This document shows, in pieces, positions 1-28,346 of a DNA stretch of 64,000 nucleotides (its first letter is position 1; every line of letters starts with the position of its first letter). The DNA comes from Escherichia phage JN02. The position numbers were made by a program, and so were the translations under genes. The notes below the pieces were generated by a model that saw only the letters and a program-made list of their open reading frames with translations, did not search any database and had not been told where the DNA came from. The stretch lies in the sequence record MT782071.1; one strand, written 5' to 3'.

Positions 1-30
1 GACCCCGACCAAGAACAAGAGGATTTTTAA
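1..30 (+). CDS. 20: portal vertex protein gp20, last 9 codons (partial, start outside window)
   Basis: Frame 1 reads DPDQEQEDF-stop ending at 28-30 with TAATG overlap onto gene 67; T4 order 20-67-68-21. Confidence 0.4.
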   Translation, partial: DPDQEQEDF

Positions 31-266
31 TGGACGATTTAATTCAAGCTATTAAATCAAACGACCTCGTTGCTACTCGAAAGTTTTTTGAAAGTGCAAT
101 GGCAGAAAAAACGGTTCGTTTGATTGAAGCACGCAAAGCAGAAATCGCTTCTCAATTTTTGATTGAAGGCGAAGAACCTGAAGAAGAAAAGAAAGCTAAA
201 GCTTCGGAAGATGACGCTGATGAAGGCGATGACGACGAAGACGAAGATGATGAGGACGATGAATAA
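30..266 (+). CDS. 67: prohead core protein gp67
   Basis: 78 aa with D/E-rich C-terminal tail; SD GAGGA; size and position as T4 gp67. Confidence 0.85.
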
Positions 267-691
267 TGTATCTTATCCCTGAATCTTATGAATTGGTACT
301 CGAAAATGTCGAAGCACTTATTCCTGAAGCACAGGGCCGAATCGATGCATTGTCTTCTGCTCTCGATATTGACGATATAAATACTATTATCGAGAACATG
401 CTTGAAACTGAAACGGATTTAGCTGTTGCAATGGCTTCCATTATTAATGAAGAACAGTTAAATGAGTTTATCGTTAAACATGTTTCTTCTCGTGGTGAAG
501 TCACCCGCACTAAAGACCGTAAAACTCGTGAACGTAACGCGTTCCAAACAACTGGTCTTTCTAAAGCAAAACGTAGACAAATCGCTCGTAAGGTCGTTAA
601 AGCTAAAAAAGCTAACCCTTCAGGCCAAGTTAAAGGCTTGCGTAAGCGTAAAAAAGCTCTTAAACGTCGTAAAGCATTAGGATTAAGCTAA
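266..691 (+). CDS. 68: prohead core protein gp68
   Basis: 141 aa, basic C-terminus; TAATG coupling to gene 67; T4 synteny. Confidence 0.85.
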
Positions 692-6634: not shown

Positions 6635-6886
6635 CTAGAACTTGATTTCTATCCAATGCCCATCACGCTGGTCGTGATTAATTTTGTACTGAAAGCCGTT
6701 ATCACGGAACCACTGCCCAATTTGCTCGGTGATAGTTAAATCATTCTTTGAGGGATAGTACGTAAATTGTGTCTGACCTTTGTCAGCGGCTTTCTCTGCC
6801 ATCACAGAGAAGTTAGTAATAAAATCTTTCAACAAATTGGCTTTAGTGGCCAGGGCCCTTTCTCTTAATTCCTGTGCAAAACTCAT
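6635..6886 (-). CDS. hypothetical protein (T4 24.2 position)
   Basis: 83 aa ORF with ATG start, between rnlB and hoc. Confidence 0.6.
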   Translation of the reverse strand: MSFAQELRERALATKANLLKDFITNFSVMAEKAADKGQTQFTYYPSKNDLTITEQIGQWFRDNGFQYKINHDQRDGHWIEIKF

Positions 6887-27067: not shown

Positions 27068-27109
27068 TTTGTTCTCCAGGTGGTTTTATTGATTAGATGG
27101 TACAAGTCT

Positions 27110-27138
27110 ATAGTAACACATCCTACAGGAGAGTAAAC
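27110..27138 (-). promoter_or_regulatory. early promoter
   Basis: GTTTAC, 17 nt, TACTAT upstream of ORF 26699..27067. Confidence 0.6.
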
Positions 27139-27174
27139 ATCTTTTTAAACTTTTTCTGCCCTAAACGCACAAAA

Positions 27175-27192
27175 GGGAGACCGAAGTCTCCC
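27175..27192 (-). terminator. intrinsic terminator after the 59-aa basic ORF
   Basis: minus strand GGGAGAC-UUCG-GUCUCCC followed by UUUUG. Confidence 0.75.
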
Positions 27193-27197
27193 TAAAA

Positions 27198-27377
27198 TTA
27201 TGCAGCAACCTTTCCAAAACGAGAAGCATCATCTCGAAGAACTGCACGTGCTCTGCGCATGATCTTCTCAACTGTTTGATTAATACGAGAGTTCGACCCA
27301 CGCTTGTATCCAGCGCGTTTAGAGGTACCATCAACTTTCTTTTCAACTGCTTTCTTTGCTTTAGCTTGTTTTGCCAT
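27198..27377 (-). CDS. small Lys/Arg-rich protein
   Basis: 59 aa hand-translated (MAKQAKAKKAVEKK...); ends 6 nt before a terminator hairpin; replaces track ORF 27161..27346. Confidence 0.45.
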   Translation of the reverse strand: MAKQAKAKKAVEKKVDGTSKRAGYKRGSNSRINQTVEKIMRRARAVLRDDASRFGKVAA

Positions 27378-27640
27378 TATAAATTCTCTTTAAATGAAAA
27401 TGCAGGACTTATTGACATTGCCTGCGCAAGCCCTCAAGGGGAACATAGGTTTTGGATATTTAACGACAGGATAACCATAAGCCCGTCATCATACCAACCA
27501 CGACTTAGACAGATAACCTTTTTCTGACGCGTGATAGTACAAAATACATTCAAGAGGTACACCGTAAAATTGTCGGGGTCTTAAAACTATAATGATTCGC
27601 AAATCATTAATCAGACAATTCGACGGCTCCTCGATTTAAC

Positions 27641-27889
27641 TTACTTCAGGGTAATAACAAAATGACGAACTGCTTTACGTGCTGCAGAAGCCAGAGGCTT
27701 AGCATATTTCAATTCATCTTTCTGGACCAGGATATCGCGAAGATCGGCTTGTGCTGGATTCAGATGTTTGAAATACTGTAAGATTTCAAGAGCTTCGGCT
27801 TCAACATCAATAGATGCGCCGTAATTGTCATGGCCATTATTCCATGCATGGCGTTGCAGTTCAAGAGCGTGTTGTAATTGTTTAGTCAT
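27641..27889 (-). CDS. rIII: rIII lysis inhibition accessory protein
   Basis: 82 aa; size, position and remembered sequence similarity to T4 rIII. Confidence 0.85.
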   Translation of the reverse strand: MTKQLQHALELQRHAWNNGHDNYGASIDVEAEALEILQYFKHLNPAQADLRDILVQKDELKYAKPLASAARKAVRHFVITLK

Positions 27890-28013
27890 TTTAAATTCTC
27901 AATTCGAGATAATATTTAGTAGCCACGTTCTTCTGAATTTCACCTTCTTTCGACAAGTCTCTCAGTTGTAGGCTACTGCTTAGAAGAGTGTTCTCTTCAT
28001 ATAGTTATTTATA

Positions 28014-28346
28014 TCACTTATAAAGACATGGAATAGCTTTATAGTGGCATGTTACGAATTTCTGTTTAATTTCTTTAGGATGTTTAAGACCTAAAGCCAC
28101 AAATGGATGTGGAACATTTCGAATTTGTCCAACTGGTAGTGAAGTCAAATCACCGACTTCAACAAAACCTTCAGGAACATCAGGACCTACAGAATGAACT
28201 ACACATAGTTCAGGAACTTCACCTTGAACACGTTTACCAATCACAAGTCCTGATTCGGTAACTTCTTCATCACCTGCTTGAGCGGGTTCAGAAACCAGAA
28301 TGACATATTCACCAACAGCACGAATTGGGAGTTGTACTTCAGACAT
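28014..28346 (-). CDS. 31: gp31 co-chaperonin (GroES analogue)
   Basis: 110 aa; T4 size and position; middle promoter upstream. Confidence 0.9.

Follow-up and report, generated by a model that had tools for sequence, protein, structure and literature searches.

The mRNAs of phage T4 are under the control of RegB, RegA and RNase E, and one of them, the gene 32 mRNA, carries in its leader an H-type pseudoknot that acts as an autoregulatory operator. The phage-encoded structured RNAs rnaC and rnaD of T4 are co-transcribed with other genes. Together with the pistol ribozyme and the antitoxin ToxI, these are the described RNAs closest to the elements reported here. The env25 pistol (Rfam RF02679; 5K7C) has the sequence CGUGG-UUAGGG-CCACG-UUAAAUAG-UUGC-UUAAG-CCCUAA-GCG-P3-G^U-GCAA, and in pistols the A3 of the linker shows high conservation and docks into the minor groove of P1. 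The abortive-infection system ToxIN has as its antitoxin the RNA ToxI, with a 36-nt repeat, AGGTGATTTGCTACCTTTAAGTGCAGCTAGAAATTC (PMC8610362). Toxins of the ToxN/AbiQ type are inhibited in nature by pseudoknotted RNAs with A-rich tails, and a phage RNA decoy of ToxN was shown in the case of pseudo-ToxI of phage PhiTE (PMC3475682).

We analysed a window of 64,000 nucleotides (the whole stretch of DNA) from a T4-like phage of the genus Mosigvirus, JN02. Its genes rIII and 30.9, transcribed from the minus strand, are separated by a gap of 263 nt (27378-27640), whose best match was Escherichia phage SF (98.9%). The minus-strand order is gp31, rIII, the gap, gene 30.9, a UUCG-loop terminator and gene 30.8. 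The rIII product is 85-88% identical to T4-type RIII, and the gene 30.9 product matched none of the Pfam families searched. The T4 reference record has a 244-nt gap in the same interval and no annotation in it. In the literature on the rIII-30.9 interval, on T4 small RNAs and on a ToxI-like RNA in T4, of which our coverage was incomplete, the elements are not described. Comparison with relatives indicates that the gap is very probably a selected, structured, non-coding RNA region, with the following features:

27641-27889, minus strand: rIII, lysis-inhibition accessory protein of 82 aa, the upstream flank (PHROG 1457, E=8e-42)
27627-27640, minus strand: GUUAAAUCGAGGAG, sole remnant of the site where T4 and many relatives hold a ToxI-like unit (gap comparison)
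27554-27632, minus strand: module F, a long irregular hairpin (MFE fold, 13-nt inverted repeat, covariation)
27590-27609, minus strand: apical hairpin of module F, an 8-bp A/U-rich stem with the loop UGCG (arms 27590-27597/27602-27609)
27495-27537, minus strand: module D, a stem-loop (alignment A6, covariation)
27444-27489, minus strand: module A, an H-type pseudoknot (alignment A1, covariation)
27427-27444, minus strand: module B1, GUU plus a short G/C hairpin, CCCC-UUGA-GGG, plus CUUG (gap comparison)
27402-27425, minus strand: module B2, the hairpin GCAGG-CAAUGUCAAUAAGU-CCUGC with a conserved 14-nt loop (variants in relatives)
27375-27390, minus strand: ribosome-binding region of gene 30.9, an A/U-rich unstructured tail (AAGAG at 27390-27386, ATG at 27377-27375)
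27198-27377, minus strand: gene 30.9, a small basic protein of 59 aa, the downstream flank (PHROG 1427)

No ORF within the gap exceeded 42 aa; the longest one starts with GTG, and the next, of 37 aa, with TTG. Length, frame, position and start codon of the gap ORFs were all unconserved among relatives; 1-nt indels separate the gap sequences of close relatives, and these have different ORFs in other frames. The statement of an earlier note on this DNA that the gap holds no convincing ORF thus stands, the only ORFs being short and not conserved. Some records carry ORF calls of 42-60 aa in the gap, made by Phanotate and other pipelines. Its second statement, that there is no canonical promoter, was borne out as well: a consensus scan of 27100-28100 gave neither a sigma-70-like promoter nor a terminator-like site within the gap, and reading the sense strand of the gap by eye gave neither TATAAATA (the T4 late promoter) nor a spaced MotA box plus -10. 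The gap also has no intrinsic terminator in the sense of a G+C-rich stem followed by a U tract; the apical hairpin of module F is A/U-rich and lies inside a longer helix. The consensus scan missed a textbook T4-style terminator after gene 30.9, at 27171-27192 (minus strand), which reads GGGAGAC-UUCG-GUCUCCC and then UUUUGUG.

It is thus hardly probable that a small protein is encoded unrecognised in the gap, or that the genes on either side have a promoter or terminator there. Pointing that way are the annotated ORFs of 42-60 aa, a short U run after the hairpin at 27590-27609 and the sequence GGGCTTG, which faintly resembles a MotA box, but no ORF is common to the relatives, no promoter- or terminator-like site lies in the gap, and the hairpin is buried as described above. 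The MotA-box reading of GGGCTTG was dropped because the distance of this element to gene 30.9 is not constant, ranging from ~60 nt to >300 nt.

Poor conservation across relatives, which by the earlier note would have counted against its proposal, was not observed: 773 phage records matched the gap stretch, 518 of them covering at least 80% of it. For comparison, gap intervals were gathered from IMG/VR, 25 loci via the 30.9 protein and 46 via RIII alignment, to which T4, T6, U115, RB51, HY01 and LF82-7 were added. In the ~50 T4-like genomes compared, short modules make up the rIII-30.9 gap as a mosaic, having been gained, lost and reordered. It measures 119-416 nt where RIII is 60-100% identical to that of the window. 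In two more distant phages (L094 and L095) there is no gap, the 30.9 homologue beginning 8-9 nt after rIII, and in other phages unrelated ORFs occupy its place. The module order is F-D-A-B in the window, E-F-A-B in T4, A-B only in HY01 and D-A-B in some Mosigviruses; more distant phages have A-E-C-B, C-A-B, B-A or B-C-A. Deletion junctions are visible between gaps, e.g., T4 versus T6. All of the window gap except short linkers consists of modules with helices kept by compensatory substitutions. These are single copies, and no family of tandem or direct repeats in the gap exceeds 9 nt.

Further hairpin cassettes were seen in the gaps of relatives (at the gap start in L010-L012, L016 and L025; also in L014, L029, L083 and L097). 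One recurrent cassette is GCCCACCAUGUGUACGCAUGGGUAAC. In another, the frame GGCUCUAUGC-[variable hairpin]-UAAGACUUAGAGCU can contain the inner hairpin of module D, and in a third the long stem GGGAGC...GCUCCC precedes a hairpin, which pairs with the Shine-Dalgarno of 30.9.

By single-sequence energy the fold of the gap was not significant (z = -0.87, sense strand), so the case for structure rests on the comparison with relatives. In modules A, F and D, for which they were counted, compensatory changes were well above those in position-shifted controls. Module F has an outer (27632-27629/27557-27554), a middle (27627-27623/27565-27561) and an inner helix (27621-27614/27574-27567). Its 25 pairs were paired in 99.1% of cells, with 5 double-sided changes versus 0-1 in shifted controls (13 distinct sequences). 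In module D, an outer stem of 8 bp (CUAUCACG/CGUGGUUG) leads through an internal loop containing UAAG to an inner stem of 4 bp, which is capped by the conserved 9-nt loop AAAAGGUUA; 92.9% were paired versus 24-56% in shifted controls, again with 5 double-sided changes versus 0-1 (7 sequences). In module A, 84.7% of cells were paired versus 30-52% when shifted (17 sequences), both partners vary in 9 of the 16 pairs, and covariation scored 0.302 versus 0.03-0.14. These counts rest on 7-17 related sequences and may overstate support; since the sequences are few and related, and the F fold was derived from one of them, double changes were weighted over the percentage paired.

The variants of module B were read directly. 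The B1 stem, present once in the window, occurs in relatives as CCCU../..AGGG, CCUCU/AGAGG and CCCC/GGGG. B2 reads AACUGG...CCAGUU in L074 and L031 with an identical loop, the pairs having changed from A-U to U-A and from G-C to A-U. The position of B1 relative to module A varies by phage, from adjoining to upstream or far away.

Several G·U pairs are invariant or dominant: in module A pair 7-33 is UG in 16 of 17 sequences and pair 16-54 in 10 of 17, in module D pair 8-44 is UG in 6 of 7, and in module F pairs 14-85 and 20-79 are GU in all 13. On the opposite strand these would be A·C mismatches, and the structures therefore belong to the mRNA-sense RNA. Among the possibilities raised in the earlier note (small RNA, structured leader, protein-binding site), it is the RNA structure that the compensatory substitutions and the mRNA-sense strand support.

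The earlier note had also reported an 18-nt perfect palindrome, AATGATTCGCAAATCATT, at 27591-27608. The position is right, but the element is an 8-bp hairpin with a 4-nt loop and not a perfect palindrome. The transcribed strand reads UAAUGAUU-UGCG-AAUCAUUA, with arms that are 100% complementary and a non-palindromic 4-nt spacer. In L073 a U-A pair has become C-G and an A-U pair U·G, which keeps the stem, and the loop is UACG; the apical loop thus stays UNCG-like, as UGCG or UACG. The palindrome as a protein-binding site in the DNA is not supported, the U-A to C-G change in a relative having kept an RNA hairpin. The apical hairpin is enclosed by an inverted repeat with 13-nt arms (27562-27574 and 27614-27626), which the earlier note had passed over.

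The same data bear on whether the gap could be debris or selfish DNA, i.e., remnants of lost genes or mobile cassettes in a recombination hot spot that bring no benefit to the phage. This explanation is very improbable. It would fit a hypervariable region with clean presence and absence of blocks, ORFs annotated there by some, and the visible deletion junctions (T4 versus T6), but base pairing is kept through compensatory changes on one strand only, the loops are kept across phages with RIII only 60-70% identical, and modules have persisted after their transfer to unrelated phages.

As the near-universal core, module A was found in 39 of 48 loci, and it occurs once in the window. It also occurs outside the rIII-30.9 setting. 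A degenerate module-A pattern searched in metagenomes hit mostly T4-like loci, with four chance matches and one new context, the contig L124. There (1-330, minus strand), a ToxI-like unit, several hairpins and module A follow an ORF unrelated to rIII, and are followed by a strong sigma-70-like promoter, TTTACA-17-TATAAT. In the metagenomic phage contig L101, module A stands alone, on the tRNA strand, in a 58-nt spacer between tRNA-Asp and tRNA-Pro (6797-6854, minus strand), and the 3' strand of its pseudoknot ends 1 nt before the 5' end of tRNA-Pro. The L101 terminase is closest (46%) to PAK_P3-like phages and not to T4. This contig also encodes a 473-aa protein beginning MTTLFNALNATATT, which may be Ro60/TROVE-like.

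In phi92 (Justusliebigvirus; L113, 2400-2760), a T4-type gap lies within a tRNA cluster as a permuted unit. Positions 1217-1463 of the T4 locus (98.4% identical) are followed directly by positions 1133-1229, which comprise the 3'-terminal 84 nt of rIII and the 13 nt with which the gap begins. Such a junction is of the type expected from tandem duplication. The right end of the unit merges into tRNA-Gln via a common TGGAGATT. The unit runs through the gap to the 30.9 ATG, which is fused to the last 27 rIII codons, and then into the start of the gap again; phi92 gene product 113, annotated as "putative rIII", is the chimeric ORF so formed. From the tRNA-cluster and L124 contexts we argue that the RNAs are independent of rIII or gene 30.9.

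These contexts recall rnaC and rnaD, in that module A and the whole gap are found in the tRNA clusters of other phages. The gap modules of T4-like phages, in contrast, are part of an mRNA and not of the tRNA operon, and the gap had no sequence similarity to the tRNA/rnaC/rnaD region of T4. Module A resembles the gene 32 operator as an H-type pseudoknot in a T4 mRNA leader upstream of a gene for a small basic or nucleic-acid-binding protein, but its position relative to the downstream gene is not fixed and it occurs without gene 30.9. We know of no sequence similarity between the two pseudoknots.

The modules could alternatively be cis-acting mRNA elements, with no role elsewhere, that guard the rIII 3' and 30.9 5' ends from ribonucleases, set processing or tune 30.9 translation. 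They do lie between two co-transcribed genes, with B2 and the A/U-rich tail immediately before the 30.9 start. The Shine-Dalgarno of 30.9 has a pairing partner in distant relatives, the hairpin UUUCUCC...GGAAGA; T4 mRNAs are under RegB, RegA and RNase E control, and there is a GGAG in module F. We nevertheless consider this explanation unlikely, if the most serious of the alternatives to be weighed here. Module order and distance to the 30.9 start vary, 30.9 homologues exist without any gap (L094, L095), and module A turns up where neither rIII nor 30.9 is present, within a tRNA cluster as well as behind an unrelated ORF. Loops are moreover as conserved as stems, which generic stabilisers do not need. 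For most of the gap, a structured leader of gene 30.9, as put forward in the earlier note, is unlikely on the same grounds of variable order and distance, 30.9 without a gap, and modules without 30.9.

The annotated length of gene 30.9 is 59 aa in T4, but in T6, RB51 and HY01 the start was placed 42 nt upstream, which gives 72 aa. In the window an in-frame TAA five codons upstream closes the 72-aa form; the extension would overlap the B2 region.

Module A consists of the helices P1 (27489-27482/27470-27463) and the pseudoknot (27479-27473/27451-27446), each of which has covariation support from the 17 sequences, joined by the linker UUAAAUA with an invariant AAA (27461-27459, alignment A1). 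This layout resembles the pistol in several respects. In both, a P1 hairpin ending in CG has its loop pseudoknotted (6-8 bp) with downstream sequence; the 7-nt linker after P1, UUAAAUA with its invariant AAA, is identical; and after the pseudoknot come 3 nt beginning with an invariant G (G-U-A/U), a short hairpin (here B1) and CUUG. The env25 pistol and module A have the 9-mer CGUUAAAUA in common.

Modules A and B1 could hence be a diverged pistol-like self-cleaving ribozyme that cuts the rIII-30.9 transcript and is permuted or split by insertions in some phages. In addition to the layout and the CGUUAAAUA 9-mer, CUUG could pair with the CRA of the linker, pistols are phage-associated, and a synthetic circularly permuted pistol is active. 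Ribozymes beside phage tRNAs have precedent (PMC10879173). However, the Rfam Pistol model gave no match even at E<=10 (window 27405-27505 and L081 1570-1690; 101-121 nt). The catalytic junction differs: the 5-nt UUAAG is absent, pair 33-41 would be A-U instead of G33-C41 with its G40 triple, and G42 is A or U. The G after the module A pseudoknot is invariant, with A residues before it. As P2 only CRA/UUG, of 3 bp, can be drawn, without covariation, because the UUG never varies. The B1 hairpin is present, but where pistol has the conserved 2-nt cleavage junction G-U, the phages have G-C, A-C or C alone. In L016 and L101 module A occurs without B1, and in several phages the would-be catalytic G is set off from the pseudoknot by an insert of ~190 nt exactly between the two. 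A hatchet construct also has a similar helix-plus-GUUAAAAU strand, and the motif is therefore not diagnostic of pistol. The phages with module A are enterobacterial and T4-like, whereas pistol hosts are Firmicutes.

Given the Rfam miss, the mismatches in the catalytic and cleavage junctions, the doubtful P2, module A without B1 and the ~190-nt inserts, we did not file module A as a pistol. The self-cleaving reading is improbable, and we give as little credence to its wider form, an unrecognised pistol branch in T4-like coliphages, with linear, circularly permuted and split forms, that would free neighbouring RNAs including the T4 ToxI mimic. Convergence on a common helix/A-minor motif is a plausible source of the likeness. 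The conserved AUGAUGA before P1 was also considered as part of a hammerhead, but this was rejected: GAAA lies on the wrong side, and most sequences, the window among them, have A at the would-be G12.

Searches for other known RNAs were negative within their scope. Against 4,227 Rfam families, the window region, eight related loci and small sub-regions gave only chance-level matches, and no Pistol, ToxI or riboswitch; the chance-level matches were to snoRNA and miRNA models, and to Atu_C8 on the 30.9 terminator. In the nine related loci searched, ARAGORN predicted neither a tRNA nor a tmRNA.

The gaps of relatives contain two further modules. T4 and 20 of 48 loci carry module E, a single ToxI-like unit, and a ToxI-like HMM had no match anywhere in the window. 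The unit lies directly after the rIII stop in T4 (L001, 1246-1285, minus strand), and was also found in L010-L012, L019, L024-L027, L031, L083, L097, L113 and L124. The units of relatives are up to 29-30/36 identical to the ToxI repeat. Several phages carry GGTGATTTGCTACC-AAAGTGCAGCTAGAAA in the gap; with such a gap, BLASTN matched nothing but ToxI arrays, in tandem and preceding genes for ToxN/AbiQ toxins, on small plasmids of enterobacteria (upstream of toxN in E. coli, Salmonella and Klebsiella). The T4 unit, GGAGATTCACTGCCTTAGTGTGAGCTAAATC, has diverged, with the ToxI duplex kept via U-A/C-G/A-U and G-C/A-U changes. One of the duplex changes in module E is the U9C/A25G change of PhiTE pseudo-ToxI (PMC3475682). 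In the ToxIN and T4 literature searched, the unit in T4-like phages is not described. Module A accompanies module E in each of the 20 loci (of 48) that have the latter, an association within one lineage-rich data set.

Mimicry of CRISPR repeats was considered for B1, where GUUCCCC resembles the type I-E repeat, and for T4 module E, where TTCACTGCC resembles type I-F. We rejected it: the stems do not match up, and module E is connected to ToxI by intermediates.

Many T4-like phages have, as a single copy per genome, module C, a ~150-nt structured RNA (CGGCAAGUGCAUG...GCUAACGGUGUGCAACAGAU) that lies in the gap; the window has none. Compensatory changes were found in 22 of 44 predicted pairs, and there was no Rfam match. 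It was located in L004 (phage U115, about 895-1030), in L012 (about 1250-1390) and in 19 IMG/VR contigs. The 60-aa ORF U115_218 of phage U115, which overlaps module C, is probably spurious.

The window modules had no such bacterial counterparts. BLASTN of the gap against 72,556 plasmids and against 5,426 E. coli genomes gave no meaningful match, and the degenerate module-A pattern gave only one chance match in 185,579 bacterial and archaeal species genomes. This single match, on a Bacteroidota-like contig, was judged chance, having no P1 partner. Lacking counterparts in plasmids and E. coli genomes and, for module A, in species genomes, the modules are therefore not simple captures of known bacterial antitoxins. 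If they are decoys, they would have evolved in phages and not been captured as antitoxins.

Compared with ToxI and PhiTE pseudo-ToxI, the window modules are likewise non-coding RNA in a lytic phage, module A is also pseudoknotted, with putative A-rich single-stranded parts, and the same gap in relatives holds a true ToxI-like unit. Module A has conserved UAAAU and CAAAAC tracts; as for the toxin cleavage motif that A-rich tails carry in such antitoxins, AAAU occurs in the A/T-rich gap at about chance frequency by our own count. The tandem-amplification junction of phi92 recalls the expansion of pseudo-ToxI (PMC3475682). In contrast to ToxI and pseudo-ToxI, the window modules are single copies of 45-80 nt and not 34-45-nt repeats, and they have neither a bacterial homologue nor a neighbouring toxN gene.

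Our best explanation, held with somewhat less than even confidence, is that the gap encodes co-transcribed autonomous RNA modules that serve as protein-binding decoys against host RNA-cleaving defences. The gap is in all likelihood a non-coding part of the rIII-30.9 mRNA, with four independently folding modules, F, D, A and B. In T4, rIII is driven by early, middle and late promoters (PMC9409239). After transcription with rIII, the modules would act as RNAs in their own right and would hold or mislead host RNA-cleaving defence proteins, namely toxins of the ToxN/AbiQ type. As the window has no ToxI-like unit, it would supply only other specificities. The decoy function itself is a tentative proposal and may well be wrong. 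We base it on the association with the ToxI mimic, the cassette-like turnover, the transfer into tRNA clusters and the amplification-type junction of phi92. T4, though it has a ToxI-like unit, is reported to be restricted by E. coli ToxIN unless tifA is amplified (PMC9391042), which speaks against the proposal.

T4 is among the best-annotated viruses, yet the gap is blank in its reference record. If our explanation is true, T4-like phages would have a small, fast-evolving island of RNA genes beside rIII, with an antitoxin mimic and a pseudoknot built on the plan of a ribozyme core. Two or more well-supported new RNA families would come with it, among them module A and, from relatives, the ~150-nt module C, and the comparison flags spurious ORF calls in many deposited genomes. 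RNA decoys would then join the mostly protein-based counter-defences of phages, and the gap would offer a concrete locus in a genetically tractable phage, testable against ToxIN-type and other RNA-targeting defences.
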